DNA from: Thermoanaerobaculia bacterium
GTDB taxonomy: Bacteria; Acidobacteriota; Thermoanaerobaculia; Multivoradales; JAIOJS01
Assembly: GCA_963837455.1 (NCBI GenBank)
Contig: CAWINM010000001.1
Location: 2,312,202-2,376,201 of the forward strand
Length of the DNA stretch: 64,000 nucleotides
Direction of reading: 5' to 3'
Every line of letters starts with the position of its first letter. Within the stretch, counting starts at the first letter, position 1. The position numbers and the translations under genes are program-made. This document shows, piece by piece, positions 23,133 through 52,121 of this stretch. The notes beneath the pieces were generated by a model. The model was not told where the DNA came from. It ran no database searches and saw nothing but the letters and a program-made list of their open reading frames with translations.

Positions 23133-23954
23133 TCAAGCGACGGCAAGGAACTGCTGCACGCGAGTGAGGAACGACTTCGCCTGGTTCGGCCCCAGCGCTG
23201 AGGAGATCGTCTTTTCCTCGGCGCGGATGAGATCGAGGATGGCGTCGACGCCGCGCCCCGCCTCGAACTCGGCGCGCGAGAGGCGGTACACGTTGTCGAG
23301 CTCGTAGGCCTTGTCGTGGTTGGAGAGCAGCTGGCGAGCCTGCTGGTGAATGCGGTCGGCGAGCCCGGTGAGGTCGCTCTCCGACATCCCCTGCAAGCGG
23401 TCGGTGTGGAGCTTGGCGAGATCCTCCTTGAGCTCGACCAGCCCGGAGGTGATCAGGCCGTAGAGGATCTTGCAGGTCTCGAAGGGGCTGGTGCCGAGGC
23501 CGACGGCGATCTCCTCGATCGAGCGCCGCTCGTCGATCTTGCAGATGAGCGCCCACTCCTGCGGGGTGAAGGAGACCGAGGTGTTGGAGCTCTTCTGAGT
23601 GAAGACGGGCACCAGGCGGGTCGAGGCGATGCGCTTGGAGAGCACCTGCCACTCGTCGATGCGGCGCGCCGCCTCCATCAACAGGTTGGTGTTGGACTTC
23701 TGGATCGACAGCGCGGGCGCCGGCTGGCCGGGCGTGAACACGAACTCGCCCTGCGGCCAGATGGCGAGGTCGTACACCGCCTCCTCACCGACCAGGTCGC
23801 CCACCTGCGCGTGCACGATCTGCCCATCCTGCAGGTAGATGAAGCCCGCCTCGGTGCCGTTCTTGAGGGTGAAGACGCCGGTCTTGCCCGACACCGACAC
23901 CAGCTGAATGATGTCGGGGAGCGGCAGCTCCTTGAGCGAACCCTGGAATGCCAT
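23133..23954 (-). CDS. DUF4388-domain protein
   Basis: N-terminal LKELPLPDIIQLVSVSGKTGVFTL, typical of DUF4388. Confidence 0.75.
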   Translation of the reverse strand: MAFQGSLKELPLPDIIQLVSVSGKTGVFTLKNGTEAGFIYLQDGQIVHAQVGDLVGEEAVYDLAIWPQGEFVFTPGQPAPALSIQKSNTNLLMEAARRIDEWQVLSKRIASTRLVPVFTQKSSNTSVSFTPQEWALICKIDERRSIEEIAVGLGTSPFETCKILYGLITSGLVELKEDLAKLHTDRLQGMSESDLTGLADRIHQQARQLLSNHDKAYELDNVYRLSRAEFEAGRGVDAILDLIRAEEKTISSALGPNQAKSFLTRVQQFLAVA

Positions 23955-24100
23955 GCGAGATTAATGGATCCCGAATCGGATCAGCAGATTGTAGTACACC
24001 GCTGCGGTCCCCTTGCGACCTGCCCGCCTGCCGCGAGCCCGCCCCATTCCTCTTCCGGCGACAGCTCGGCATGTTAACACCGCGGACGAGCCCTTTTTCC

Positions 24101-24628
24101 TCAGCTCCTTGCCCCCGCCGCCGCGGTGGCCCGCCGCAGCGGGCGGCGAGCGGCGAAGCACAGTGCCACCGCCAATGCGTCGGCGGCATCTGGACGCAGG
24201 GCTCCGGCGCCGGGCAACAGCATGGCGACCATGCGGGAGACCTGAACCTTGCCGGCGCGGCCGTTGCCGGTCACGGCGCTCTTGACCTCGGCTGGCGAGT
24301 ACTCCTCGATCGCCACCTCGCGCGCGGCGAGGGTGGCGAGCAGCGCGCCGCGCGCCTGCGCGAGCACGATCAGTGAGCGCGAATTGACGCCGTGGAAGGG
24401 CTCCTCGAGAACTGCCACCGCCGGGCGCCAGCGATCGACCAGCGCGCCGAGCTCGCTGGCGAGCCGTCCCAGGCGGTAGGGAAGCGCGGCCTCCCCTGGC
24501 GGCTCGATGCAGCCGCAGGCGAGAAGCCGACAGCGTGGCCCGGCGACCTCGACGCACCCCCATCCGGTGGTGCGGCTGCCAGGATCGAGGCCCAGCACGC
24601 GCAGCGGATCGCTCGCCTCGCTCGTCAT
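24101..24628 (-). CDS. ruvC: Crossover junction endodeoxyribonuclease RuvC
   Basis: Motifs RVLGLDPGSRTTGWG, AVLEEPFHGVNSRS, YSPAEVK and DAADALAVAL. Confidence 0.85.
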   Translation of the reverse strand: MTSEASDPLRVLGLDPGSRTTGWGCVEVAGPRCRLLACGCIEPPGEAALPYRLGRLASELGALVDRWRPAVAVLEEPFHGVNSRSLIVLAQARGALLATLAAREVAIEEYSPAEVKSAVTGNGRAGKVQVSRMVAMLLPGAGALRPDAADALAVALCFAARRPLRRATAAAGARS

Positions 24629-24774
24629 CGGGACCGCCCTCGATCATAGCCGACGCCGGTGCGTCGCGGCGGCGGCCGAGGGACGCGTAGCGACGCCGTT
24701 GCAGGCGTTTGCATTGACTGCGCTGGCGGCGGGTGCTACAAAGAGGAACCATTTTCAGCTTGGAGTCAGCCCCA

Positions 24775-27700
24775 TGTCCCTGATCCTCGTCATCGAGCAG
24801 GAAGCTCCGTACGCCGAGCGGATCAAGGGCGCGCTCACCGCCGAGGGGTGGACGGTGGAAGTGGTCGACGGTCGCGAGGCGGCGGTGGCGGCGGCAGCCA
24901 ACGGCGCGCCCGACCTGGTGCTGGTGAGCACCGCCGCGCCGGGAGCTGACGAGGTGTTGCGGTCGTTCGCGCGCGCACATGGCGGACCAGGCGCGATGGC
25001 GCTGACGGCAGCCGGTGCCGCCACCCCTGCGGGCGCCGACGGCGCTCTCTCCAAACCTTTCACCGACGAGCAGCTGCGTGTGTCCGTGCGCCGCTGTCTC
25101 TCACGCGGCCAGAAGGCAGCCGCCGAGGCGGCAGCCGCGAGGGCAGCCTCCGCGGGGGCGCAGCTCACTTCCCAGGATCTCTTCGGCGACCTGCTGGCCG
25201 AGGTCGAAGAGGAGGCGTTGCGGGCGGCGCGGCCGGCGCCGGCGCGTCCCGAGCCCGATATCGACAAGCAGCTGCAGCAGACGCTGTCGGGCGTCCTGGA
25301 TGCGAGTGCCCGTCCGGCAGCCAGGCCGGCGTCGGCGGCCCCCGCGACGCCCCACTCGGACCCCGCGCCGCAGCCGACACCCATCGCGCCTGCTGTTGCC
25401 GCCCCGACTACGGCCGCCGCCTCGGCGTCGCCGCCCGTCGCGGCCCCACCGCCCCCGGCGCCCAAGCCGGCACAGCCTTCCCGACCCGCCGCTGCGGCCC
25501 GCGCCCGCGCGGCGGATGCCGCGAGCGGGGAGATCGACGTGCTGCTCAGCCAGACGCTGTCCGGTCTCGGCGTGGCGACGCGTCCGCGCCGGGCGGCGCC
25601 CCATCCGGCCGCCGCGCCCAAGGCTGAGATGCCACCCGCGGCCGTGCCCGCGGCAGCCCACGAGGAGCCCCCCGGGGCCCAGGCCGTGGTGGTCGAGACG
25701 CCCGAGGCGGAGCCGCCCAAGCTCGAGCCCGCGGCGGCCGCCGCGGTGCCGCCCGAGCCGCCTCGTCGCGAGCGCGGCCGTCGCCCGGCCGAGGTGCCTC
25801 CGCCGGTGGTCGTGTTCTCTCCCGTCCCCGACCTGCCGCCGCCAACGGGGGGCTTCGCCACCGTGCGTGTCGAGACCGCACGGCCGGTCCCGCCCGACCA
25901 GTTCGGGCAGTACTCGTTGCTCGATCGCGTCGCGGTGGGCGGCATGGCCGAGGTGTGGAAGGCGCGCATGAAGGGGGTCGAGGGCTTCCAGAAGACGGTG
26001 GCGATCAAGAAGATCCTGCCCCACCTCACCGACAGCGTCGACTTCGTCACCATGTTCATCGACGAGGCCAAGCTGGCGGCCCAGCTCAACCACCCCAACA
26101 TCATCCACATCTACGACCTCGGCAAGCTCGAGGACGACTACTACATAGCCATGGAGTACGTGGAGGGGAGGGACCTGCGGTCCATCCTCAACACCGCCAG
26201 GCGGCGCGAGCAGCCGCTGCCGACCGGCCTCGCACTGCTCATCGCGGCGCGTCTCGCCAGCGCCCTCGACTATGCGCACCGCAAGCGCGACTTCGACAAC
26301 CGTGAGCTCGGGCTCGTGCATCGCGACGTGTCGCCGCAGAACGTGCTGATCAGCTACGAGGGTGACATCAAGCTCTGCGACTTCGGCATCGTCAAGGCGG
26401 TGGCCAAGGCGAGCAAGACGCAGATGGGCGCGCTCAAGGGGAAGCTGCAGTACATGTCCCCCGAGCAGGCGTGGGGGCGGGTCGTCGACGCGCGCTCGGA
26501 CATCTTCTCCCTCGGCGCGGTGCTGTTCGAGATGCTCACCGGTCGCCGCCTGTTCGCCGGCGAGAGCGAGATCTCCGTGCTCGAGGCCGTTCGCGAGTGC
26601 CGCGTGCAGTCGGTGCGCGAGGTCGAGCCCGGCACCTCCGAGGCGGTCGATGCCATCGTGCGGCGCGCCCTCGCCAAGGACCCCGACGACCGCTACCAGA
26701 CCGCCGGCGAGATGCAGAAGGAGCTCGAGAGCGTCCTCTACACCTTCAAGCCGACTCCCAGCCAGGAAGAGCTCGGCGCGCACATGCGACGCCTCTTCAG
26801 CGAAGAGTTGGGTGAGACGGGAGCCACCGACGGCAAGGCGGTGGGTTCGGCGGCCTCGGTGCCGAGCCCCGGGGCCGAAGTCCCGGCGGTGGCGCCGGTC
26901 GGTGGCCTACAGGAGGGCGGCGAAGGGGGGCGCAAGCGTCCGTGGCTGGTGCCCGTTGCGGCAGTGCTGGTGCTCGGCGTCGTCGGAGTCGTCTTCTGGC
27001 TGACTCGTGGCGGCTTCGCTCCCACCGGCGCCGCCGATCGGGCCGCTGCCGCCGCGGCGCCGGCGGCCGCGCCGGCGCCGGCCGCCTCCGCGCCGGTTGT
27101 CCCGGCGCCGACGCCGCTGCCTGCCGCGGCGCCTGCCGACACCGCCGAGATGCAGCGGTTGGTGCAGCAACAGCTGCAGGCGAAGGAAGAGCAGCTCAAG
27201 CAGCAGCTCGAGGAGCAGCGACGCCAGATCGCCGCCCAGCTCAAGAGCGAGCCGGCGCCGAGCGCTGCCTCCTCTCTCAAACCGTCGCCCACGCAAGTCG
27301 CTGCGGTCACGCTGCCGCAGCCCTCTACGGCCCCGACGCAGATCGTCGAAGAGCCGCCGGCAGCGCCTCCAGAAGCCGAGACGGCGGCGGCCGAGGTGGC
27401 CTCCGCTGTGCCCGAGCCGAGCGCCGCGCCGGCGCCTATCGCCGCCGTTCCGGTGGCCCCTCCCCCGCCTCCCAAGCCCGCCATCAACGAAGGCGACCTC
27501 GTCGAGCCCGGCACTCCCGGGCTGACTCCGCCGGCGTTTGTCAGCGTCGAGAAACCGGAGTATCCTGCGCTCGCCAAGCGCTTCGGCGTGCAAGGCGTGG
27601 TGGTGGTTTCGGTCCTGGTCAACGAGCGGGGAGCGGTCGAGCAGGCGCGCATCGTCAAGGGGGTCGCCCAGAAGGTGGGGATCAACGAGGCGGCGCTGGC

Positions 27701-27791
27701 GGCGGCTCGGAGCGCTCGGTACCGGCCAGCCACCGTCGGTGGCGTGCGCGTCAAGACCTGGGCGAATCTCAGCATTCCGTTCAAGCTCTGA
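24775..27791 (+). CDS. Multidomain protein: N-terminal pseudo-receiver, Hanks-type Ser/Thr kinase, TM helix, Ala/Pro-rich spacer and C-terminal TonB-C domain
   Basis: The receiver-like domain has S where the phospho-acceptor Asp should be (PDLVLVSTAAPG) but keeps LSKPF. The kinase has VGGMAEVW, VAIKK, HRDVSPQNVLI, DFG and SPEQ. The TM helix is PWLVPVAAVLVLGVVGVVFWL. The C-terminus is a TonB_C domain (EKPEYPALAKRFGVQGVVVVSVLVNERGAVEQARIVKG...RYRPATVGGVRVKTWANLSIPFKL). Confidence 0.8.
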
Positions 27792-27806: not shown

Positions 27807-28043
27807 ATGTCGACCCTGAGCGATCAGCAACGCAAGTTCTACGAGAACACCCTGCAGGTGACCAAGCAGGAGATCAACGACCTCGATCGGCAGATCGAGG
27901 AAGAGCTGGCCAAGGTCAAGGAGCGGCTGGCCCAGCTGCAGAATGGCAAGAAGGCGGCGCGACAGATGTACGATGCAGCTTGCTTGCGTCTCGAGATCCC
28001 CAACGACCTCGCCGAAGAGGAAGGCGCCGAGGCCGAGGTCTGA
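27807..28043 (+). CDS. Small coiled-coil hypothetical protein (78 aa)
   Basis: Strong RBS GGGAGGAG 8 nt upstream. The protein is charged with heptad-like repeats. Confidence 0.5.
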   Translation: MSTLSDQQRKFYENTLQVTKQEINDLDRQIEEELAKVKERLAQLQNGKKAARQMYDAACLRLEIPNDLAEEEGAEAEV

Positions 28044-28110: not shown

Positions 28111-28963
28111 ATGGCCTGGTTCCGCAAAGAGAGGAAGCCAAAGGCGGTGCGGCGCGGCCGCACCGGAAGCCCCATTCCCGAGGGGCTGTGGACCAAGTGC
28201 GAGGGGTGCAAGGAAGCGATCTTCAGCCGCGAGCTGGAGAAGAGCCTCCAGGTCTGTCCCAAGTGTGGCTACCACTTCCGGATCGACTCGGCAGCGCGCA
28301 TTCGCCTGTTGCTCGACGAGGAGAGCCCGCGCGAGCTGCTTGCCGCCCTGCGCCCGACCGATCCGCTCGGCTTCGTCGACTCCAAGCGCTACCGCGATCG
28401 GCTCAAGGTCTACCAGCAGGAGGTGGGAGTCAGGGACGCGGTGGTCGTCGTGGAGGGCCACCTCGATGGGCAGGAGGTGTTGCTGGCGGCGATGGAGTAC
28501 CGCTTCATGGGCGGCTCGATGGGGTCGGTGGTGGGAGAGAAGATCGCCCGCGCCGCCGAGATCGCCGCCGAGCGCCGCGTGCCGTTGCTGGTGGTGTCGG
28601 CCTCGGGCGGCGCGCGCATGCAGGAAGGCATCCTGTCGCTGATGCAGATGGCGAAGATCTCGGCCGCGCTGGCGCGCTTGCGCGCCCGGGCGCGTGCCGT
28701 ACATCTCCGTGCTCACCGATCCGACCACCGGCGGCGTCACCGCCTCCTTCGCCATGCTCGGCGACCTCAACATCGCCGAGCCCGGAGCCCTGATCGGTTT
28801 CGCCGGGCCGCGGGTCATCGAGCAGACCATCCGCCAGGAGCTGCCGGAGGGGTTCCAGCGCAGCGAGTTCCTGCTCGAGCACGGCTTTCTCGACATGGTG
28901 GTGCCGCGTCACGAGCTCAAGGCGACGCTGGCCCGCTGTCTGCGCCACCTGCACGCCGCCTAG
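28111..28963 (+). pseudogene. accD: Acetyl-CoA carboxylase carboxyltransferase subunit beta, one frameshift near 28690
   Basis: N-terminal zinc ribbon CEGCKEAIFSRELEKSLQVCPKCGYHFR. The carboxyltransferase domain runs through ORF 27943..28983 and then continues in ORF 28694..28963 ([23 protein letters not shown]...). Confidence 0.7.
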
Positions 28964-30512: not shown

Positions 30513-31776
30513 CTAGCTCAGGGGGTCGTAGAGCGGAAACTGCAGGCAGAGGCGGCGCACCTGGTCCGCTACCGCGGCACTGCTGTGCTCGCTCTCGGCA
30601 TCGGCGAGCGCCTCGGCGATGAGGTCGCCGATGCGGTCCATCTCCGCTCCACCCATGCCGCGGGTGGTGACGGCGGGGGTGCCGATGCGCACGCCGGAGG
30701 CCACCAGCGGCGGGTTGCGGTCGTAGGGGATGGTGTTCTTGTTGACAGTGATGCGAGCGCGCTCGAGCGCCTTCTCGGCGTCCTTGCCGGTCAGCCCGCG
30801 CGCCGCCACGTCGACGAGGAAGACGTGGTTGTCGGTGCCGCCGGAGACGATGCGGAAGCCGCGCCCGCCGAGGCGTGCGCCAGCGCGCTCGGCGTTGGCG
30901 ACGATCTGCCGCTGGTAGCTGCGCGAACTCCGGCGCCGCCGCCTCCTTGAAGGCCACCGCCTTGGCGGCGATGACGTGCATGAGCGGGCCGCCCTGGATG
31001 CCGGGGAAGACGGCGCGATCGAGGTCCTTGGCGTGCCGCTGCTTGCACAGGACCATGCCGCCGCGCGGGCCGCGCAGCGTCTTGTGCGTGGTGGTGGTGA
31101 CGAAGTCGGCGTGCGGCACCGGCGAGGGGTGGAGGCCGGCGGCCACCAGCCCGGCGATGTGGGCGATGTCGGCCATCAGCAGCGCGCCGACCTGCGTCGG
31201 CGATGGCGCGGAAGCGCGCGAAGTCGATCGTGCGCGGGTAGGCGCTGGCGCCGGCGACGATCAGCTTCGGCCGGTGCTCCCTGCGCGAGCGCCGCGATCG
31301 CGTCGTAGTCGATGCGCTCGCTGTCGCGATCGACGCCGTAGGCGACGACCTTGAAGAGCGTGCCGGAGAAGTTGAGCGGCGATGGCCGTGCGTGAGGTGC
31401 CCGCCGTGGGCGAGGTCCATCGCCAGCAGCGTGTCGCCGGGCTGCAGGCAGCGCGAAGTAGACCGCCATGTTGGCCTGCGCGCCCGAGTGCGGCTGCACG
31501 TTGGCGTGCTCGCGCGCCGAAGAGCGCCTTGGCGCGGTCGATCGCCAGCTGCTCGACGACGTCGACGAACTCGCAGCCGCCGTAGTAGCGCTTGCCCGGG
31601 TAGCCCTCGGCGTACTTGTTGGTGAGCACCGAGCCCATGCGCCTCGAGCACCGCCGCGGCTGACGTAGTTCTCCGAGGCGATCAGCTCGAGCCCGTCGTG
31701 CTGGCGGCTGGCGCTCGCGGGCGATGGTGTCCCAGATCTCCGGGTCGGCGGCCTCGAGGTTGCGGCTGTCGAGCAT
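30513..31776 (-). pseudogene. glyA: Serine hydroxymethyltransferase with at least 3 frameshifts
   Basis: ATG at 31776 ([15 protein letters not shown]...[20 protein letters not shown]). The domains continue in alternating frames: [16 protein letters not shown] in ORF 31176..31499, [14 protein letters not shown] in ORF 30391..31176 and the C-terminus in ORF 30513..30809. Confidence 0.75.
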
Positions 31777-31831
31777 CGGGGTCAGGGGTTCGGTGGGGCG
31801 GGTGCGCGCGTCGGCGGCAGGCCCGACGCGC

Positions 31832-32020
31832 TCAGTCTTGCGGCGCCTCCGGGGTGGGCTTGGCCTCCTCGCGCTTCCTTCCGCCGCTCTTCTTGGCGGC
31901 CGGCTTCTTGGCCGTCTTTGCCTTCTCCTGCGCCTCCGCCCGGGCGGCGCTGCGGCGGCGTTGCAGCCGCTTGGCACGGCGCTGGCGGCGCCGTTTCAGC
32001 TCGCGATCTTTCTCACGCAT
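31832..32020 (-). CDS. Small highly basic Lys/Arg-rich protein (62 aa)
   Basis: ATG at 32020, [23 protein letters not shown]...[15 protein letters not shown]. Confidence 0.45.
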
Positions 32021-32090
32021 GGTGCAACCTCTCGCATGTGGGGAGTGAATGCATGTCGGCGCGACAGCTTGTCGCAGCCCCGGTGCCAGG

Positions 32091-32832
32091 TCAAGGCGGC
32101 GGCGTTGTGGCCCCACCCTGGGCGCGCCAGCCCGGCACCCACGCTTCGATGCCGCTCTTGGGCCACTCTGTCTGCACGCCGAGGAGGTCAGCCAGCAGGC
32201 GCGGCACCCCGCGCAACTCGGGCTCCCCAGGCACGCGTTGGGAGCTCAAACCGCTGGCGGCAGCGATGAACAGCGCTGGATCGTGCTCCAGCGCGGAGCG
32301 GATGCCGTGATCCGACATCACCACCAGGACGTCGTTGGCATCGAGCGCCTGGTAGAGCTGGCGAAGGCGCAGGTCCATGTGAGCCTGGCTTGGCGATGCT
32401 GCGCACTGCCACCGCCGTGAAGGAGGGCACGCTCGAGAGGACGGCGCGCACGCCGTTGCCGGCGAGGGCATCGAAAGTCGGTAGGTCGCCACGGGCGCGT
32501 CCGAGGTCGACGAATCGCCAATTGGCGCAGTCCAGGATGACCACGAACAGCCGGTTGCCGCCGCTCGCCGGCCGCTGGTGAAGTGGCGCCATGGATGTCG
32601 AGCTGGAGGTCGCCAACGCACGCGCCACGACGGTGGCGACCGCGGTGCCGTCGGCACTCGGCCGTGCAGCTCCCGATCCGCGAAGATGACCGTCGCCGTC
32701 GCGCAGCACCCAGTGCAAGGGCCAGGTGTCGGTAGGGCGTGCGACCACCACTCGTCCCGAGGGCGGAACCGGCAGGCTGAGGTAGGGCATGTCGTGCGGG
32801 GCTGCCGGCGGAGGCGAGACGAGCAGACGCAT
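32091..32832 (-). pseudogene. Alkaline-phosphatase-superfamily protein (nucleotide pyrophosphatase/phosphodiesterase-like), frameshifted
   Basis: RLFVVILDCANWRF...SSVPSFTAVA is in ORF 32188..32985 and VVMSDHGIRS in ORF 32091..32657. The start is approximate. Confidence 0.5.
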
Positions 32833-33058
32833 CCCGGGTTGCGGCGAGGTGACGCGGAGTCTCGATCGCGCCCGCACGAGCCGTAGCCAGCTCTGCCGCG
32901 CTTCCTCGCTCTTGCGCCGAGTGCAGGAAGCTAGTCGGCCGGTGCCCGCCGACAACCGGCGGCGAGCAACGCCGCGGCGAGCCACCAGCCGACGTGCAAG
33001 GAGCGGAGCCGGCAGGACCGAGCTCGACTCGCGTGGCGCGTCCTGCCAGTCCGGGCAG

Positions 33059-34628
<1,570 letters not shown>

Positions 34629-34754
34629 CGTGCGCGCCCCTCCGGTGTGGGGGCGAAGGATACCGCAGCGGGCGCGACGGTACGGTGGGGTGGCGCTCGC
34701 GCTCGCCGCGCCTTGGCACGGCGCGCACAGCGTTGCGAGCCGTACAATCCGCGG

Positions 34755-36068
34755 ATGCCGTTTGGCGAGCTCGACCGCCCTGCCCTCGCCCGGGCGCTGG
34801 CGCAGCTCGCCGAGGGGCCCGAGGACCTCGTCGACGCCCTTCTCGAGCGCGTCGAGGTAGTCGAGCTGCCACCCGCCGGCGAGCCTGCCGGCGTCCGTCT
34901 CTGGCGCGAGGAGGGCCTGGCGGTGCGCCTCTGTCGCGGCGAGCGCAGCTGGCTCGCCAGCCGCGACCGCCTCGATCGCGACGCCTTCGTCGATGCCCTG
35001 CGGCAGGTGGCGCGGGTCCATCCGCGGGCGGTGCCGCCCCCACCGGCGGTGCTGATCGCGCCCTGGGGACCGCTCCCTGGCAGTGCCGAGCTCGAGGCTT
35101 TCCCGCGGCTGCTCGACCGCGCCTTGCGCGACAGGCGGGTGGCGTTCCCCTACCGCCTCGGCTTGCGCCGGCATCACCGAGACCTGCAGGTGGCGACTCC
35201 ACATCTGGCCCCGGCTCCCGAGCGCGAGAGGTACTACAGCTTTCGCGTCGAGCTGCCCTGGGGGAGTGTCGGCGGGCTGCTGCCCGAGCTCGACGACGAG
35301 GCGGCGGAGGGGCTCGCCGGCCGTCTGGCCGACGGCTTCCGGGCGCGCGAGGCGGCACCTCCATCACCCGGTGTCACCACCGTGCTCCTGGCGCCGGCGG
35401 CGGCGGCCACCCTGTTGCACGAGGCGGTCGCCCACGCACTCGAGGCCGACACCCTCGCCGCTGCCGGCGCGCCGGAATCGGCGCACGGGGTGCGGCTGTC
35501 GCCGGCCGCCCTCGACGTGCTCGACGACCCCGGCGGTGCGCCACGTCCGGTGCGACGCCGCACCGATGACGAGGGGACGCCGGTGTTGCCGCGTTGGCTA
35601 CTGCGCGGTGGTGTCGTCGACCAGCCGCTCGCCGACCAGCGCTGGGCGCGCCGCCTGCCGGGCCTGCAGCCGGGCGCGGGGAGACGCGATAGTCGGCACC
35701 GGCTGCCGGCACCGCGCTCCACGTACCTGCGCCTTCTCCCTGGCGAGGCGTCGCTCGAGGAGCTGCTGGCTCGTGCCGGCGATGGGCTCTACCTGGTGGA
35801 GCCCCGGCGGGGCCGGCTCGACGTGGCCAAGGGCACCTTCGCCCTCGGCTTCGCGCATGGGCGTCGGATTGCGGCCGGCGCCCTGCACGAGCCGGTGGGG
35901 CCCTGTACCCTGCGGGGCCGCATCGTCGACCTGCTCGCCGGTGTCGAGGGGGTGGGCAGCCGGGCGGTGGCCGCTGGTGCCGGCTGGTGTGCCAAGGGGG
36001 GGCAGCGGCTGCCGGTGTGGGCGGCCGTGCCCGAGCTGTTGCTCGCGGGGGTCGAGGTGGAGTCCTGA
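34755..36068 (+). CDS. tldD: TldD-family metalloprotease (peptidase U62)
   Basis: HEAVAH (HExxxH) motif, the right length and the canonical adjacent tldD/pmbA pair. Confidence 0.75.
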
Positions 36069-43151: not shown

Positions 43152-45800
43152 TCAACCCGGAGCCGGTTCCACGCGTGCCAGTGCCTTCAGCACCTTGTCG
43201 ATCGACGAGTGACCGGGTGGATAGGCCTTGCGGTAGATGCCCAGGGCTTCCTGGTAGAGACCGCGTGCCTCGTCGCGCGCGTGCCGCCGTTCGAGGCAAT
43301 CGGCGAGGTCGAAGAGGGCGTCGCCGTAGGGCGGGTCGTTGGCATCGACGGCCTTCCGCGTCATCGCCAGCGTGCGCCGGAAGGTGTCCTCGGCCTCCGC
43401 CAGTCGCCCTAGCCCGACGAGCGCCTGACCCACGAGCCCGAGGCTCTGGGCAACCTGGGCGTCCACCCCGTCCGCGGAGCCGTGCTCGCGGATCTCCAGG
43501 GCGCGCCGGAAGAGCTCGAGCGCCCGAGCGGGTTCCCCCAGCGCCAGCCGGCACCTGCCCTCGTTCAGCACCGGATAGGCGGTATAGCGATGGTCGGGTC
43601 CGAGCGCCGCGGAGAAGATCGCGGCCGAGTGGGCGAACAGGGGAATGGCTTCCGTACAGCGGCCGCGGTCGATCAGCAGGTTCGCGAGCGAGTTGAGCGC
43701 CGTGGCGTACTGCGCGTGCTGCTCGCCCCACGTGCGGCGCACGAGATCCACCGCCCGGGTCAGCACCGGCTCCGCTTCGTCGAAGCGCTCCTCGGCGCGC
43801 AGCAGTGCACCGAGGTTGTCGAGTGGTAGGGCGATCAGGGGGCTGTCCTTCCCCGAGCTCCGTTCCAGGATCTCGATGGCGCGGCGGTAGGCAGCTTCGG
43901 CCGCCGGGTACTCTCCGACGTCGTCGAGCACCAGCCCAAGATTGTTCTGCCAGCGCCCGGTCTCGTCGCCCTCGACGCCGAGGGTATGCGCGATCGCGAG
44001 GGCGCGCTCGAACTCGTGCCGCGCGGCCGGCGGGTCTCCCTGGTAGCGCAGCACCACACCGAGCGCCGAGTGGGATCGCGCCACGTCGAGGTCGTTCGAC
44101 CCCAGGTCGCGCTCGCGGATGCGCAGGGCCTGCTCGAGATTCCGGCGCCCGTCGTCCAGGCGGTCTAGATAGCGGTCGAGGCTGCCGAGCTCGTAGAGCG
44201 CCTCGGCGGTCGGCAGGCTCTCGTCGCCGAACTGGCGATGGCGTTGCGCGAGCGCCTGCTCGAGGAGGGGACGGGCGTCCTCGTAGAGCCCGAGGTCGCG
44301 CTCGACGCCGCCGATCGCCAGCCGCAGCGTGGCCTGAACCTCCGGCTCGGCGGCGAGCTCCTTGTCGATCCGCTGCGCGCCGCTCACCAGCACCTCGCGA
44401 GCCGTCAGCTGGGCGCCGCGAGTGTGCGCCGGGTCGGCCTGCTGGAAGAGGTGAGTGAGGAAATCCGAGACGTGGCGAGCGGTCGCCGCCTGGATGCGCG
44501 CCTGGTCGCGCTCGGCGCGCGCCACTCGTGCCTCGTAGGCCACCGCCACCAGTCCAGCCGCCACGGCGAGGAGGACGCCGGCGCCCGCCGCCGCCGCCGC
44601 CCGGTGGCGCAGCACGAGCTTGCGGGTGCTGTAGAGGCGGCTGCCCCGTCGCGCGCTCACCGGCCTGCCGTCGAGATACGCGCCGAGGTCGCCCGCGAGC
44701 TCGGTGGCCGACCGATAGCGCGCCTCGGGGTCGACACGCAGCGCCTTGAGCACCACTGCGTCGAGATCGCCGGCCAGCGATCGCGCGCGCTGGCGTACCT
44801 CGCGACTCGTGCCGGGCGACTCGAGCAGCTTGCGGCTGGGTGGTCGCGTCGTCTCCCGCGCCAGCTCCTGCGCCAGGCCGGCGGGGGTCGCTGTGCTCCG
44901 CCGGTGCGGCACCTCGCCGGTGAGCAGCTCGTAGAGCAGCACCCCGAGCGCGTAGACGTCGACCGCGGTGGTGACCGGCTCGCCGAGGATCTGCTCGGGT
45001 GCCGCATACTGCGGTGTCAGCAGCCGCGACTCGCTGCGCGTCAACGCCTCCCCTTCCTCCTCCTCGAGCACCTTGGCGATGCCGAAGTCGAGCAGCTTCA
45101 CCCGTCCGTCGGCGGTGACCAGCAGGTTCGAGGGCTTGAGGTCGCGGTGCACCACCAGCCGCCGGTGGGCCGCATCGACCGCCTCGCAGACCTCGACCAT
45201 CAGGCGGAGCCGGGACCGCAGGTCGAGGGCGCGCTCGGCGGCGTAGCGGGTGATCGGCACGCCGTCGACGCGCTCGAGCGCGAACCAGGGCAGCCCTTCC
45301 TCGGTCACGCCGCCGTCGAGCACCTTGACGATGGCCGGGTGGTCGAGGCTGGCGAGCAACTGGCGCTCACGCAGGAAGCGGCGCTGGAGCTCGGGGGTGT
45401 CGACGCTGCGGCGCAGGACCTTCACCGCCGCCTCCTGCGCGAACGTGCCGTCGGCGCGCTCGGCGCGGTAGACCGTCCCCATGCCCCCCTGGCCCAGCGG
45501 CTCGTGGAGCTGCCAGACCCCGAGCCGCTGCCCGTTCCAGCGCATGGCGTCCGCCGCCCGCGGGCCGGTGGGGACCCCCTCGCCGAGCGCCGCCACGAGC
45601 GCCGCCGCCCCACCGTCGAGGAACGAGCCGCCAACGCCGTCGGCGCGCAGCAGCTCCTCGAGGTCGCGGGCCTGGGCGGGATCGGTGGCGCGGAGCTCGG
45701 CGAGCAGCTTCTCGCGCTCCGGCAGGTCGAGCTCGAGTGCCCTGGCCAGCAGCTCGCGGGAGCGCCTCCAGGCCGCCTCGGGGGGCGGATCGGCGCTCAC
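43152..45800 (-). CDS. Ser/Thr protein kinase with TM segment and C-terminal TPR array
   Basis: GTG at 45800 overlaps the sigma-factor stop (GTGA). The kinase has [33 protein letters not shown] and APEQ, then a TM helix and about 9 TPR repeats. Confidence 0.8.
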
Positions 45801-46405
45801 GCGGAGGAGGCGAGCATCCCCAGCTCGCGGTGCAGGAAGGCCCGCGCGGTGCGCCAGTCGCGCTTGACGGTGGTCGGCGAACGCTCCACGAGCTCGGCGA
45901 TCTCCTCGACGGAGAGACCGCCGAAGAAGCGCAGCTCGACAATCCGTGCCTGCTCGGCGTCCGCCGCGGCCAGCCGCGCCAGCGCCTCCTCGAGGGCGAG
46001 GACGTCGATGGGTGCGATCGGCGTCTCCTGCGCCACGTCGACCACCCAGCTCACCGGTTGGCCGCCGCCGCCGCGCTTGGCCGCCCGGCGCGCCCGTGCG
46101 TGATCGACCAGGATGCGCCGCATCGCCTGCGACGCCACCGCAAGAAAGTGGCCGCGGTTCTTCCATGCGACGCGGGTCTGATCGACCAGTCGCAGGTAGG
46201 CCTCGTGCACCACCGCCGTGGCCTGGAGCGTCGAGCCGGAGCGCTCGCGGCGGAGGTGCCGCGAAGCGATCGTCCGCAGCTCCGCGTAGACGAGCGGCAG
46301 CAACCGCTCGAAGGCGCCGGTGTCGCCGGCGCTCCAGGAGACCAGCAGCCGGGTCACCTCGCCCCGTTGCGGCTCCGACTCGACGTCGCCGCGATCTCCG
46401 TCCAT
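45797..46405 (-). CDS. ECF-type sigma-70 family factor (kinase-associated ECF subfamily)
   Basis: Sigma2 region (HEAYLRLV) and sigma4 (LSVEEIAELVERSPTTVKRDWRTARAFL). It sits immediately upstream of, and is translationally coupled to, the kinase. Confidence 0.8.
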   Translation of the reverse strand: MDGDRGDVESEPQRGEVTRLLVSWSAGDTGAFERLLPLVYAELRTIASRHLRRERSGSTLQATAVVHEAYLRLVDQTRVAWKNRGHFLAVASQAMRRILVDHARARRAAKRGGGGQPVSWVVDVAQETPIAPIDVLALEEALARLAAADAEQARIVELRFFGGLSVEEIAELVERSPTTVKRDWRTARAFLHRELGMLASSA

Positions 46406-46616
46406 GGCTCGGATGACGAGCCAGCTTAGGAGCCCGGCCGCCGGGTGTCAATCGAAGCGGCGACGAGGCTCATGCTCCTCGGGTCCGGTTGGGCGGCTGG
46501 CGATCCTCCCGGGCGAGGCGGCTCGATGCCGGCGGTCGACTCGGTCCCCGCGGCCCGCGCCGAAGCGAGTGGCCGCCTACCCGGTGCGACGGGCGGGGCC
46601 GAGTCAGGTCGGGGGC

Positions 46617-48341: not shown

Positions 48342-49111
48342 AGCAGCCGAGCGTAGCGGTCGAGGAGGGCCGGGCCGGCGAACACGGCAACACCGGCGCC
48401 ACCGGCGAGGAAGACGCCGAAGGGGAGGCGGGAGCCGAGGTCGAGGCGGCCCAACGCGATCAACGTCAGACCGACGAGCGCACCGCCGAGCGAGCCGAGG
48501 AAGACGGTGATGAGCACCCCCTGCCAGCCCAGAAAGGCTCCCACCATGGCGAGCATCTTGACGTCGCCGAGACCCATGCCCTCCTCGTGGCGCAACAGCA
48601 GCCACGCCTGCGCCAGCAGCCATAGGCCCGCACCACCGAGCGCAGCGCCGAGCAGCGACTGCCGCCAGTCGATCCAGTCGGCCCGCAGTGAGATGAGAAA
48701 CCCGATGGCGAGGCCGGGGAGGGTGATGGCGTCGGGGAGCAGGAAGTGCTCGTAGTCGATGAGGGCGAGGGCGATGAGCGCGGCGCCGAAGGCCGCCGCG
48801 GCGAGCGCGTGCCAGGTGACGCCGAAGGCCTCGAGACTGCCGACGAAGAGCGCCCCGGTGGCGGCCTCGACGAGCGGGTACCGCCAGGAGATCGGCGCCC
48901 GACAGCTCCGACAGCGCCCGCGCAGCAGCAGGAAGCTCAGCAGCGGCAGGTTGTCGCGCACCCGCAGGAGCGCCCCGCAATGCGGGCAGCGCGAGCGCGG
49001 CAGCACCGTCGACTCCTCGCGTGGCAGTCGATGGATGACGACGTTGAGATAGCTGCCGATCACCAGGCCGAGGAGCCCGGCGTAGACGTCCACCAGCACC
49101 CTGAGGGTCAT
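48338..49111 (-). CDS. pilD: Prepilin peptidase (A24 family, type 4 prepilin-like leader peptidase)
   Basis: N-terminal tetra-Cys motif (CPHCGALL...CRSCRAP) and membrane-domain motifs LALIDYEHFLLPD and GLGDVKML. ATG at 49111 overlaps the stop of the upstream membrane protein. Confidence 0.85.
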   Translation of the reverse strand: MTLRVLVDVYAGLLGLVIGSYLNVVIHRLPREESTVLPRSRCPHCGALLRVRDNLPLLSFLLLRGRCRSCRAPISWRYPLVEAATGALFVGSLEAFGVTWHALAAAAFGAALIALALIDYEHFLLPDAITLPGLAIGFLISLRADWIDWRQSLLGAALGGAGLWLLAQAWLLLRHEEGMGLGDVKMLAMVGAFLGWQGVLITVFLGSLGGALVGLTLIALGRLDLGSRLPFGVFLAGGAGVAVFAGPALLDRYARLL

Positions 49112-51483
49112 GCCGGCGATTCTACGGTCGACGAGGGAGCGCCGTGGGTCGGGCCGGCGGGGCGGCGCCGCAGTGCCACCAGGGCGGCGCCGAGCAGGGT
49201 CAGCCCGGTGCCGGCGGCGCCCAGTCGCACCCAGGGGTCGTGGTAGGCGAGCCGCAGGGTGTGCTCTCCCGCCGGCAACGCCACGCCCACCTGCCCGAGG
49301 CTGGTGGGGCAGGTGGGCACCGGGGTGCCATCCTCGAGCCGTGCTTCCCAGCCTTCGTCGAAGGTGAGGGCGGCGACCAGGAAGGCGGGGCCTGTAGCCC
49401 GATAGCGCAGCCGCACCTCCTGGCGCTGCCGGGCCGCGAGGACGTGGGCCGGCGCGTAGGCGGCCGCCGGTGCGGCGGCTCCCACGCAGAGGTCGGCGGT
49501 GGCGAGGTCGAGCGTCGGCAGCGCCGCGGTGGCCTCGGCAGCGGTGGCCACCCCGGTCACCGAGCCGACGAAGCGGAAGCGCGGCAGCCGGCGGGGCTCG
49601 GGCAGGAGCTGGTACGGCTGCGGCGGCTTCCGCGTCAGGCGGAGCTCGCGCACCAGCTGGCGCGGATCGCGTCGCAGCACCAGGGTGCTGACGTCCCAGG
49701 CTCCCAGGAGGCGGTCGACGGCATCGCGATTGGGCCAGGCGGCCTCGAGCTGCGCGAGGGAGTGGCGGGCCCAGGAGGTCAGCATCAGGTCGTAGTCGTG
49801 GTGCAGCGCGTACTCGAGACCCCACAGATTGGCGACGTAGGGGTCGAGCCGCTGAATACGCTCCCACAGCTGCTGGAAGCCGCGTGGGCCCCGTCTCAGG
49901 CCGATCTCGGGGCGGCGGTCGAGGTCGGCGCTGCTGAACAGGCGTCCGCCCTCGGCACGCGCCGGCGCGACCGCGGGTGGAGGGGTCAACACCTCGGTGG
50001 CGGGCAGCGTCGGCTCGAGCCCTCGGCCGTACCACCAGAGGTCCATTGCGAGCAGCGCCAACGCCGCGACGGCGGCGCCGCGACGGCTCAATCGGGTGCC
50101 GCCGAGCAGGACGAGGAGGAGCGTCGCGCCCGCGGCCAGCAGGAGTGCCACCAGCGCCTCCCGACGGAGGAAGGCGAGGGCGATGGCGAGGGCCCGCGGT
50201 GACGGCGGCAGGCCGCTGTGGCCCCGGATGAACCCCTCACCCACGGCGGGGCGCGCCGCGAGCAGCACGGCGAAGAGGGTCGCCACGGCAGTGACGATGG
50301 CGGCCAGCGCCGCCGGCAGATACGCCCGCTCGCGCTCGCCACGCTCGCGGCTGCCGAGCAGGTGGTGCCAGCCGAGGGCACCGGCGAGTGGCACCACTGC
50401 GGCGGTGAGCACGAGGAACTTCTCCGGGTAGCGCACCACGGACAACAGGGGCACGTGGCGCAGCGGCTCCCACAGTGGGTCGTGGCGGCCGAGCGCGAGC
50501 AGGGAGCCGAGGACGGCCGCAACCCCCCACGAGGCCCGATAGGGGATCGGCCAGCGCAGCAGTGCGGCGACCGCGAGCACGGTGAGCAGCAGGCCGGAGT
50601 AGAGCGCGACGACGTAGGGGAAATCACGATCGTGCAGTCCCCAGCCTAGCCACAGCCCCTCCTCGTCGCGCATCGGATCACCCCAGAAGCGCGGCAGCAC
50701 GAAGTCGACGAAGCGGGCTGGCGGGCTGGACCACAGATCCGCCTCAGCGGCCCTGAGGCCGGTGCCGCGAGCGGTGCCTCCGAGGCGGTGCAGGGTCGGG
50801 GCGAGCTGCACGGCAGCGATAGCGGCTGCCAGCACGCCGATGGCCAGCAAGCGCGCCAGGCTGCGGCGCAGCCGCGCGAAGGGGCCGAGGGCGAGGGCGG
50901 CGAGGGCCAGGCCCGAGATCAGCACCGCGACGGGCTCTCCCGCCAGCAGCTGCAGCGCGAGGCCGAGGGCGGCGAGCAGCGCCTTCCCCCCCCAGCGACC
51001 CGCACGCGGGGTGGCGAGCGCCGCCTCGCCCGCCGCCAGCACCCAGGGGAACCAGGCCATGGCGCAGTAGAAGTTGAAGGTGCTGGTGAGCGAGAGGAAC
51101 CAGCTCGAGGCGGCGAAGCCCATGGCGCCGAGGGCGGCGGCGTCGCGACCGGCTCCCAGGCGTCGCAGCAGCAGCCAGGCGCCGGCGAGGGCCCAGGCCG
51201 CGTGCAGGATCACCAGCCAGGCGAGCGCGTACGGGACCGGCAGAGCCAGGGCGAGCCAGCTGGGGGGATAGAAGGCCGCGTAGTTGGGATTGGAAAGGAT
51301 CGGCTGTCCGCCGTGCACGAAGCGGTTCCACTCCGGCAGCGCACCGGCGTGCACGAGATCCGCGACCACCTGCCGCAGCGGGAGGTGAAAGAAGGCGAAG
51401 TCGCGGACCATGAGCACCCGCCCGGGGAGAGCGAGTGGCACCAGCAAGACGGCGAGCAGCAACGCCCCCGGCAGCAGCGGCAA
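49108..51483 (-). CDS. Large polytopic membrane protein with a C-terminal extracytoplasmic domain, GT-C-like (YfhO-like) putative glycosyltransferase
   Basis: 791 aa. About 13 predicted TM segments are followed by a soluble domain of about 330 aa. It is a paralog of the protein at 62261.. (shared R-D..L...L, NPN.A.FYP and W..LRRLG.D.AA.G motifs). TTG start at 51483. Confidence 0.55.
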   Translation of the reverse strand: MPLLPGALLLAVLLVPLALPGRVLMVRDFAFFHLPLRQVVADLVHAGALPEWNRFVHGGQPILSNPNYAAFYPPSWLALALPVPYALAWLVILHAAWALAGAWLLLRRLGAGRDAAALGAMGFAASSWFLSLTSTFNFYCAMAWFPWVLAAGEAALATPRAGRWGGKALLAALGLALQLLAGEPVAVLISGLALAALALGPFARLRRSLARLLAIGVLAAAIAAVQLAPTLHRLGGTARGTGLRAAEADLWSSPPARFVDFVLPRFWGDPMRDEEGLWLGWGLHDRDFPYVVALYSGLLLTVLAVAALLRWPIPYRASWGVAAVLGSLLALGRHDPLWEPLRHVPLLSVVRYPEKFLVLTAAVVPLAGALGWHHLLGSRERGERERAYLPAALAAIVTAVATLFAVLLAARPAVGEGFIRGHSGLPPSPRALAIALAFLRREALVALLLAAGATLLLVLLGGTRLSRRGAAVAALALLAMDLWWYGRGLEPTLPATEVLTPPPAVAPARAEGGRLFSSADLDRRPEIGLRRGPRGFQQLWERIQRLDPYVANLWGLEYALHHDYDLMLTSWARHSLAQLEAAWPNRDAVDRLLGAWDVSTLVLRRDPRQLVRELRLTRKPPQPYQLLPEPRRLPRFRFVGSVTGVATAAEATAALPTLDLATADLCVGAAAPAAAYAPAHVLAARQRQEVRLRYRATGPAFLVAALTFDEGWEARLEDGTPVPTCPTSLGQVGVALPAGEHTLRLAYHDPWVRLGAAGTGLTLLGAALVALRRRPAGPTHGAPSSTVESPA

Positions 51484-51542
51484 AGCGCGCGCGAGACGAG
51501 AGCCGCGAGGGGCGATCGCGCGCTCCTGGCCGCGCCGCGGCG

Positions 51543-52061
51543 TCAGTTGCTCAATCGCTGCGGCCAGCGGACGAAGAAGCCGTCGACCCAGACGATGTCC
51601 TGGGAGTAGTCGGTCGGCTCGAACGCGCCGGGAGTGTAGGTGTCGGTCTCGAAGCTGTTCCCCTGGCCGGCGCTGCGCACCGCCATCACGGACGCCCCGT
51701 GGGGGTCGGCGGTGTCGAGGTAGTAGTCGTAGGGTTTCTTCCAGCCGTCGAGCAGCGGAACGTCCTGGATGTAGGTGGGCACGATCTGCTTGGCGAGGTC
51801 GTCGCGCCCGATCGGCGAGTAGTCGGAGATGGCAACAGTGGTCACCGCGGCCCCTGCGGCGGCGGCACCTACCTGGTCCGTGAGCCAGCCCATCATCGAC
51901 CCGCCGACCAGCCGGCAGTCGGCCATGGTCTTCTTCTGCTTCGCCTTCTGCATGGCGTCGAGCAGGTTGGGTATGAGCATGGCTGCCAGCAGGCCAATGA
52001 TGGCCACGACGATCAACAGCTCGATCAGAGTGAATCCCCTCTCCCGGAACGCTCGACGCAT
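51543..52061 (-). CDS. Prepilin-type (class III signal peptide) pseudopilin, GspG/PulG-like, paralog 1
   Basis: MRRAFRERGFTLIELLIVVAIIGLLAAM with Gly at -1, Phe at +1 and Glu at +5, then PNLLDAMQKAKQKKT. The C-terminus ...FEPTDYSQDIVWVDGFFVRWPQ is shared with paralog 2. Confidence 0.8.
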   Translation of the reverse strand: MRRAFRERGFTLIELLIVVAIIGLLAAMLIPNLLDAMQKAKQKKTMADCRLVGGSMMGWLTDQVGAAAAGAAVTTVAISDYSPIGRDDLAKQIVPTYIQDVPLLDGWKKPYDYYLDTADPHGASVMAVRSAGQGNSFETDTYTPGAFEPTDYSQDIVWVDGFFVRWPQRLSN

Positions 52062-52121
52062 CTCAGGTCCCCCTTGAATTGGGAATTGCGGATGGGACCA
52101 TTGCAAGCGGCGAGCCAGAGC

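Follow-up and report, generated by a model that had tools for sequence, protein, structure and literature searches.

Much work has been done on transmembrane kinases of the Hanks type in Gram-positive bacteria, in which fragments of the cell wall are read by PASTA domains; to our knowledge, much less has been established on what such kinases sense in diderm bacteria. The stretch of DNA analysed here raises this question in a particular form. It covers 64,000 nt of a Thermoanaerobaculia bacterium (Acidobacteriota; contig CAWINM010000001.1 of assembly GCA_963837455.1, positions 2,312,202 to 2,376,201) and is called the window below. One of its genes encodes a 1005-aa protein in which a Hanks-type Ser/Thr kinase is joined, through one transmembrane (TM) helix, to a periplasmic arm ending in a TonB-type domain (TonB_C). 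What would a kinase do with such an arm? The initial annotation had proposed that it couples the state of an outer-membrane receptor to cytoplasmic phosphorylation.

We concluded that the protein belongs to an uncharacterised conserved family within the known class of transmembrane Hanks kinases, and that it forms, with a 78-aa protein encoded just downstream, a two-gene module of the Thermoanaerobaculia and related Acidobacteriota. As to what the arm does, the reading that we favour, with a probability of about 0.45, is that of a non-energised TonB-like probe carried by a conserved, envelope-spanning receptor kinase which acts together with its small partner.

The kinase gene and its small helical partner

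The kinase gene occupies positions 24774..27791 of the window (+ strand; 1005 codons plus stop). The frame was read directly and is a single intact open reading frame (ORF), as had been said of it, though from a start at 24775 that is one base out of frame. The program-listed ORF runs from 24507 to 27791; the sensible start is the ATG at 24774 (MSLILVIEQE...), with a GGAG about 10 nt upstream. A public contig of 2.56 Mb encodes the identical protein (P0001). From the N- to the C-terminus the parts are a pseudo-receiver, a disordered region with three motifs, a PknB-like kinase, the TM helix, a coiled coil, a Pro/Ala spacer and TonB_C.

The spread of the family was assessed in several ways. The protein search gave 120 listed matches, 116 of them of 900 aa or more, and the homologue counts below are counts among the matches listed. 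In nearly all of the full-length homologues, at least 116 in number, Pkinase and TonB_C occur together; their records bear the name 'TonB family protein' and come from Thermoanaerobaculia/Acidobacteriota metagenome-assembled genomes (MAGs). A scan of one genome per species gave at least 591 confirmed matches. Eighty loci were kept from these. The family accounts for 77 of them, no two from the same assembly, and 70 extend past the kinase stop codon; they are mostly from Thermoanaerobaculia, some being labelled Holophagae, Holophagales or Ca. Sulfomarinibacter. When the N-terminal module was used as a profile, 159 cluster representatives were retrieved at E<=1e-30, with the match always at residue 1. 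With these numbers of full-length homologues and of species genomes, the architecture is not rare, as had been supposed: it is taxonomically restricted but common and conserved, and apparently represents a single-locus family of the whole class. One locus (L006, JAHZIX010000023.1), labelled Deltaproteobacteria, has the full module and the complete Thermoanaerobaculia-type synteny, in the order ftsEX, PatA_N, Tol/Ton cluster, ruvC, kinase, small gene, accD, folC and glyA; this MAG is probably mislabelled. In the literature searched, we found no paper on a kinase-TonB_C protein or on the HRDVSPQN or DLFGD motifs described below, and the main text of a 2025 atlas of bacterial Ser/Thr kinases does not mention a TonB-linked or receiver-linked family; within that literature the protein is functionally uncharacterised, as was first stated.

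The partner gene (27807..28043, + strand) begins 15 nt past the kinase stop and is presumably co-transcribed with the kinase gene. Its ORF had been overlooked, and it is called as a gene in the public record. In tblastn, each of the 70 species loci that reach past the kinase stop has it immediately after the kinase, with 43-97% identity, and it stays there even where all other synteny is gone. The gaps between the two genes are mostly of 9-65 nt; no terminator-like site was detected between them, in a terminator scan that is uninformative in DNA of 72% GC. The small protein has 3123 relatives, all of about 75-80 aa and all 'hypothetical', and matched no Pfam, NCBIfam or PDB family beyond generic coiled coils. 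AlphaFold2 (AF2) models it as one long helix (aa 6-62, with a predicted local distance difference test score, pLDDT, of 90-98; mean for the protein 89.5), which an acidic tail follows. The 'ElaB/YqjD/DUF883' label given to some members by JGI was set aside, no profile match standing behind it.

Median identities to the window protein, taken across loci, were highest for the small protein (69-74%) and the kinase domain (67-72%), which makes these two the conserved core. Among the housekeeping neighbours the values were 65% for AccD, 55% for RuvC and 48-50% for FolC, and among the other parts of the kinase protein 45-58% for TonB_C and 33-39% for the N-terminus. The kinase domain and its small partner are thus conserved as strongly as core housekeeping enzymes.

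Active site, pseudo-receiver and periplasmic arm

The kinase domain (aa 377-655; 25902..26738, + strand) was recognised by Pfam, NCBIfam, PDB and Foldseek comparisons. The Pkinase model (PF00069) matched aa 386-644 with E=3e-41 and 141.9 bits, for a cut-off of 31.7. The closest solved relative in the PDB search is PknB of Mycobacterium tuberculosis (E=2e-50), and Foldseek, used with the full-length model, returned kinases only, with PknB at the top (38-43% identity). The best NCBIfam match overall was PknB_PASTA_kin (NF033483; E=1.7e-87, 294.8 bits versus a cut-off of 450), which spans the kinase, juxtamembrane and TM parts only (model positions 8-356 of 563). Pfam matched neither PASTA repeats nor any other domain for peptidoglycan binding in the window protein.

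The catalytic loop (aa 516-523; 26319..26342, + strand) reads HRDVSPQN where PknB has HRDVKPAN, Ser520 standing in place of the catalytic-loop Lys. The same eight residues are found in 118 of the 120 listed homologues and HRDISPQN in the other two, i.e. Ser is at the Lys position in 120/120; the Pfam match and these counts bear out the original description of a complete Hanks kinase with an HRDVSPQN loop. In the activation segment, from DFG to SPE (aa 536-564; 26379..26465, + strand), Thr549 aligns with Thr171 of PknB, and the P+1 loop, IGTAQYLSPE in PknB, is LKGKLQYMSPE, with Lys557 in place of Thr (GT to GK). Columns T549, K555, G556 and K557 are invariant in 40 aligned homologues, and so are K412 (VAIK), E431 (alphaC), D518 (HRD), N523, D536 (DFG) and the SPE; in the alignment with PknB all catalytic residues except the catalytic-loop Lys are in place. 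Since these residues are invariant and the Lys-to-Ser change is paired with the GT-to-GK one, the alignments indicate that the catalytic Lys was probably relocated to the P+1 loop and that the enzyme is probably active.

The Ser/Lys pair is also present in three outgroup kinases of other architectures, so the Lys/Thr swap marks a wider bacterial kinase subfamily. These kinases (L078, 2442-4602; L079, 4004-6197; L081, 6848-11891), with HRD[VI]SPxN and GK in the P+1 loop, are built as a TM plus TPR protein, a kinase with an N-terminal extension and a STAND/TPR giant; their sources are Binatota, a 'Deltaproteobacteria' MAG and, for the STAND kinase, Myxococcaceae. The window holds a second Hanks kinase (43152-46469, - strand; 1105 codons, C-terminal TPR repeats), which has a canonical HRDLKPSN loop and a P+1 Thr.

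The N-terminal domain (aa 1-125; 24774..25148, + strand) has a predicted CheY-like fold. Its Response_reg match in Pfam (aa 4-105, E=8e-6, 26.5 bits) is under the cut-off of 30.2, the Pkinase and TonB_C calls made beside it being above theirs. The call was held despite that score because more than 50 receiver domains of the PDB match in a phmmer search (the best, CarR, at E=2.4e-9) and because AF2, with an alignment of 40 sequences as input, gives residues 1-115 alternating strands and helices at pLDDT 93-97. In the alignment with CarR and MtrA, Ser52 is at the place of the phospho-acceptor Asp (D57), Thr78 at that of T87, Lys94 at that of K109, and Gln9 occupies the second Mg-binding Asp position, a column that is Q, S or Y in the family. 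Helix alpha4 is deleted in the clade of the window protein, leaving a 6-residue gap relative to CarR and MtrA, and in the model strand 4 runs to strand 5 without a helix. The acceptor column reads S58 N42 A6 G5 D3 in 116 full-length homologues and S37 N7 T7 A3 G3 D3 in 60 species loci. The Lys of the K109 position is kept in 94 of the 116, while the T87 position is mostly L, V or M. The Ser acceptor reported at the outset is therefore confirmed by alignment and column counts; the accompanying remark, that the Thr and Lys positions are kept, holds for this protein but not, as regards Thr, for the family. From these columns we take the domain to be a pseudo-receiver across the whole family.

Between receiver and kinase lies a disordered, Pro/Ala-rich and weakly conserved region of about 225-250 aa (median about 225) that holds three short conserved islands with invariant residues. 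Motif M1, LTSxDLFGDxLAEVE (aa 131-148; 25164..25217, + strand), was delimited on the conservation profile of alignments A1 and A3, in which T132, S133, F137, D139, L141 and E143 are invariant; it is predicted to be helical (pLDDT about 61-67) and has two copies in one relative, L075. Motif M2, (D/E)xxLxQTLSGxL (aa 162-175; 25257..25298, + strand), has T170 and G173 invariant, and motif M3, IDxLLSxTLSGL (aa 253-266; 25530..25571, + strand), is a second TLSG copy with invariant T261 and L262.

The single TM helix (aa 724-745; 26943..27008, + strand) corresponds to an AF2 helix at 727-745, in agreement with the one helix first noted. It is Ala/Gly-rich, its N-terminal half (LWxAIAA) is fairly conserved, and it contains no His. 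In TonB, a His of the TM helix (SxxxH) is needed for coupling to ExbB/ExbD. Column counts show its absence in 111 of 116 family members, and its presence in 18/18 full-length stand-alone TonB-like proteins encoded near the kinase in related loci. A periplasmic coiled coil follows (aa 790-824; 27141..27245, + strand), modelled as a helix with pLDDT 77-87, then a Pro/Ala-rich spacer (aa 825-904; 27246..27485, + strand) with pLDDT below 50; across the family, the median for the periplasmic linker is 176 aa, and Ala accounts for 24% and Pro for 20% of its composition. The protein ends with TonB_C (aa 905-1005; 27486..27788, + strand), which has the YP motif (Y930, P931), a terminal strand IPFKL and invariant columns. 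It scored above cut-off with Pfam (PF03544, aa 927-1005, E=1.3e-14, 54.8 bits versus 24.6) and with TIGR01352 (tonB_Cterm, 46.9 bits versus 27.1). The last 105 aa matched 13 TonB chains in the PDB, the sole other match being a non-significant one to thioredoxin (E=0.79), and AF2 models the domain with pLDDT 93-97. The C-terminal domain is a genuine TonB_C, and spacer composition, profiles and PDB matches agree with the Ala/Pro spacer and TonB ending originally described.

Gene context and weighing of the explanations

The gene order in the window is ftsE, ftsX, a PatA_N gene (DUF4388, - strand), ruvC (- strand), the kinase, the small gene, accD, folC and a glyA fragment. About 40 loci share this order (type A), and the common succession of ruvC, kinase, small gene, accD and folC speaks for vertical inheritance. 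In the 18 loci of type B it is miaB, a gene for an outer-membrane protein (OMP) resembling a TonB-dependent transporter (TBDT), rho, the kinase, the small gene, Peripla_BP_2, FecCD, an ABC ATPase, DUF1800 and DUF1501; in the five of type C it is ruvC, kinase, small gene, binding protein, FecCD, ABC, accD and folC. A binding protein, FecCD permease and ABC ATPase therefore follow the module on the same strand in 23 of the 70 species loci (clades B and C). The best matches of the binding protein are BtuF and the haem-binding HmuT (E=1e-23 to 1e-18). The OMP of type B, encoded two genes upstream of the kinase, consists of CarboxypepD_reg and a barrel, with a weak Plug match in one locus (L041). 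In a neighbour-joining tree, clades B and C are each monophyletic, with an A-type clade between them, and all their kinases carry TonB_C. The DUF1800/DUF1501 pair after the BtuF-like importer genes was noted in eight clade-B loci, including two with the contig end inside DUF1800 (e.g. L008, 13554-16455). Rfam found no riboswitch or other RNA in L008, L065, L023 or positions 15000-36000 of the window, so a cobalamin riboswitch link to the BtuF-like operon is unsupported.

A second kind of neighbour is a Tol/Ton cluster. The interval between PatA_N and ruvC is readable in 35 loci, and in 19 of them it holds a tolQ/exbB-like gene, a pair of exbD/tolR-like genes and a gene for a TonB-like protein of about 240 aa; the window, like 15 other loci, lacks the cluster there. 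The 19 are L082 (517-3724), L006, L009, L013, L016, L020, L024-L026, L030, L053-L055, L060, L063, L068, L070, L073 and L077. Profile scores of the motor genes favour TolQ/TolR over the ExbB/ExbD models, yet are under the cut-offs. The idea that TonB_C of the kinase substitutes for a missing exbBD-tonB cluster was rejected: the two are not complementary, 12 loci having both, and their association is weak (Fisher p=0.047, uncorrected for phylogeny). No extracytoplasmic function (ECF) sigma factor, FecR-like anti-sigma factor or STN-domain transporter was found among the scanned genes of the window, L001, L008 and L082.

The topology anticipated at the start, i.e. a transmembrane kinase with its receiver and catalytic parts in the cytoplasm and a TonB-C at the end of a long periplasmic spacer, is supported by domain calls and AF2. 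How might it work? A TM helix devoid of the coupling His and a TonB_C that comes and goes among relatives suggest that the arm is a passive probe, which would reach out across the periplasm without being energised by ExbBD. TonB_C would bind a TonB-box-like segment of an outer-membrane or periplasmic partner by beta-strand addition, and the likeliest partner would be a TBDT or its uptake machinery, given the importer operons, the TBDT-like neighbour and the Tol/Ton cluster of relatives. Engagement may alter the packing or clustering of the coiled-coil/TM dimer and thereby lead to trans-autophosphorylation at Thr549, with Lys557 of the P+1 loop standing in for the Lys that the catalytic loop has lost. 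Onward transmission of the signal could fall to the pseudo-receiver, to the DLFGD and TLSG motifs and to the helical partner protein, as docking or regulatory elements or as substrates. Taken to its full extent, this would amount to a third trans-envelope signalling route, in which the arm samples TonB boxes of ligand-loaded transporters, or some other partner, and the outcome is Ser/Thr phosphorylation by a kinase with a relocated Lys, a pseudo-receiver, conserved motifs and a 78-aa partner; we regard this fuller version as rather unlikely.

Several observations weigh against the favoured reading. No TBDT, ExbB/ExbD, binding-protein or FecCD gene is found within the 64-kb window, and the clade of the window protein shows housekeeping synteny only. 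The link to TonB-dependent uptake is circumstantial: it has in its favour the importer genes of 23/70 loci and the TBDT-like OMP upstream of the kinase in clade B, does not extend to the window's own neighbourhood, and, being limited to two clades, could be inherited synteny. At least 10 of the 70 species loci, and L082 as well, lack TonB_C itself and keep kinase, small gene and coiled coil. In these kinases the chain stops shortly after the coiled coil, following an acidic tail, and none of the reading frames holds a TonB_C; the kinase of L075 ends immediately after the TM helix. Such forms occur at six or more places on the neighbour-joining tree, often as sisters of TonB_C-bearing ones (L020/L026, L053/L006, L056/L057). 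Among the best 150 representatives of the N-terminal module, 38 have kinase and TonB_C and 45 a kinase motif without TonB_C, many of these being 800-1380 aa long; a Pfam check of six confirmed this. TonB_C is an accessory, dispensable add-on, and since kinase and small gene have persisted through its repeated loss or gain, the core function cannot depend on it. On the catalytic side, activity may be reduced or changed by the loss of the catalytic-loop Lys, for which Lys557 would compensate if the alignment is a guide, and AF2 confidence is low in part of the N-lobe (pLDDT below 50 for residues 374-409).

The main rival, which we consider somewhat unlikely, is a general envelope or cell-cycle kinase, analogous to PknB or StkP, whose arm would be a tether or ruler to the peptidoglycan or outer membrane with no link to TBDTs. 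Housekeeping synteny, which prevails in the window's clade and in most others, and the TonB_C-less relatives with their coiled coil, kinase and small partner fit it as well as they fit a passive probe. The rival is also in line with a kinase domain conserved like essential enzymes, with best NCBIfam and PDB matches to the PASTA kinases PknB, Stk1 and StkP, and with nearby motor genes closer to the TolQ/TolR than to the ExbB/ExbD models. It sits less well with a TonB_C in which the YP motif and terminal strand are retained and whose scores exceed the curated cut-offs for TonB, with an operon-like linkage to BtuF/HmuT-type importers seen, in two clades, only with TonB_C-bearing kinases, and with the lack of any PASTA or other peptidoglycan-binding domain in the Pfam search. 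An energised TonB/TolA paralogue is a distinctly less probable alternative: the TM helix would sit in an ExbB-ExbD or TolQ-TolR motor, the arm would pull, and the kinase would report or control the work of the motor. The C-terminal half does have the full TonB layout (TM anchor, Pro-rich spacer, TonB_C), the LWxAIAA half of the TM helix is fairly conserved, the tolQ/exbB-exbD-exbD-tonB cluster is one gene away in the 19/35 loci cited above, and the importer order of clades B and C recalls the tonB-exbBD-hutBCD operons of Vibrio. Against this stand the missing TM His (111/116, versus His in 18/18 stand-alone TonB neighbours), the TonB that the neighbouring clusters already have of their own, the lack of a nearby cluster in the window and 15 other loci, and the dispensability of TonB_C in many lineages.

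The remaining explanations concern the nature of the protein itself. Ser at the catalytic-loop Lys position of every listed homologue, together with a receiver domain that is likewise degenerate, could betray a catalytically dead pseudokinase that serves as a scaffold organising partners across the envelope; bacterial pseudokinase families exist (bioRxiv 10.1101/2025.01.12.632604). The three residues on which the definition of pseudokinases rests (VAIK Lys, HRD Asp, DFG Asp) show no variation, and the Asn, the alphaC Glu and the activation-loop Thr are invariant too; the Ser is paired with a new invariant P+1 Lys, a pair common to a wider kinase subfamily; and the extreme conservation of the active site fits catalysis, all of which makes a dead enzyme very improbable. 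As for an assembly artefact, i.e. a kinase gene and a TonB gene joined by a sequencing error, the apparent accD frameshift 0.9 kb downstream in the same assembly could lend it some colour. We give it next to no credence: orthologues of about 1000 aa with the same part order, at least 116 of them, are found on many contigs of independent assemblies and align continuously through the TM helix and spacer, which excludes a mis-assembled fusion and disposes of the possibility, raised with the initial annotation, of two genes separated by a frameshift.

A whole class of Acidobacteriota keeps one such kinase conserved like core enzymes, most members having a TonB-type periplasmic end. If it is true that TonB_C reads the state of outer-membrane transporters, as the passive-probe reading has it, the system would be a phosphorylation-based counterpart to sigma/anti-sigma cell-surface signalling. 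The paired exchange of Lys to Ser and Thr to Lys is a simple, testable case of the relocation of an active-site residue, found across a broader subfamily of bacterial kinases, myxobacterial STAND kinases among them, and the always-present 78-aa partner is a concrete first experimental handle. Three features merit experiments: the probable relocation of the catalytic Lys, the obligate small partner with its single helix, and the sensor arm of TonB type.

Other features of the window and comparison with known systems

Upstream, ruvC (-) and the kinase gene (+) diverge from an intergenic region of 145 bp (24629..24773, read directly), in which no sigma-70-type match was found, promoter and terminator scans being uninformative at this GC content. 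Beyond ruvC, the PatA_N (DUF4388/PATAN) protein (23133-23960, - strand), without an NCBIfam match, is present in most family loci with 40-76% identity. Downstream, accD (28111-28960, + strand) appears frameshifted about 0.9 kb from the kinase gene: tblastn with the orthologue of L002 places residues 1-184 at 28111-28662 (frame 1) and residues 195-283 at 28694-28960 (frame 2). This suggests either an assembly indel, and thus indel errors in the assembly, or a pseudogene. Serine hydroxymethyltransferase (30513-31175, - strand) has an open frame for its C-terminal third only (Pfam positions 298-399), and gene finding based on GC content at third codon positions (GC3) gave nothing convincing in the next 3 kb or so (31175-34095); there may be further frameshifts around 30513-34095. 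ARAGORN placed a tRNA-Ala(GGC) at 34677-34762 (+ strand), inside an ORF matching PmbA/TldD (34095-36068); probably the call is a false positive or the overlapping ORF call is wrong. Two ORFs of about 1000 aa, at 49108-52062 (- strand) and 54732-57737 (+ strand), have coding-like GC3 and no Pfam match at E<=1e-4.

Among known systems, the nearest relatives of the kinase are PknB of M. tuberculosis, Stk1/PknB of Staphylococcus aureus and StkP of Streptococcus pneumoniae, with about 40% identity. The PASTA kinases have the same succession of kinase, juxtamembrane segment, single TM helix and extracytoplasmic sensor, and the activation-loop Thr-Gln is found at the position of PknB Thr171; like PknB, the window kinase is conserved and sited among housekeeping genes. 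It differs in having no PASTA repeats, its sensor being a coiled coil plus TonB_C in a diderm periplasm, and in its N-terminal pseudo-receiver and roughly 250-aa disordered region with conserved motifs. It also differs in the replacement of the loop Lys by Ser with a P+1 Lys, in an 8-residue insert before HRD and in its obligate small helical partner gene.

With TonB the protein shares the TonB_C domain, a single TM anchor with the N-terminus in and the C-terminus out, and a Pro-rich spacer whose length suffices to span the periplasm. Unlike TonB, it has about 720 cytoplasmic residues before a TM helix without His, exbBD is not adjacent in the window, and TonB_C is dispensable in sister lineages. 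Cell-surface signalling by FecA-FecR-FecI would be conceptually alike if the arm reads transporter state across the inner membrane; hypothetically, the output would then be Ser/Thr phosphorylation, and the contact a TonB box and not a signalling domain. FrzS of Myxococcus xanthus and the N-terminal domain of KaiA are examples of pseudo-receivers. Here as there, a CheY-like fold, predicted in the present case, lacks the acceptor Asp and has an incomplete acidic pocket, presumably for protein contacts; unlike them, the present domain is fused to a Hanks kinase and, in the clade of the window protein, has lost alpha4.

The nearest architectural precedent is found in GltG and GltJ (AgmX) of the M. 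xanthus Agl-Glt gliding machinery, in which a cytoplasmic FHA-FHA or ZnR-GYF part is followed by one TM helix, a long disordered periplasmic segment and a TonB-C-like domain, and which work beside a TolQ/TolR-like motor (PMC11135422, PMC11761067). The window kinase has no sequence relationship to them outside TonB_C, its cytoplasmic part is a kinase, no glt genes accompany it and its host class is not known to glide. Relatives of the kinase are often found near tolQ-like, two exbD/tolR-like, TonB-like, PatA_N and TPR genes.

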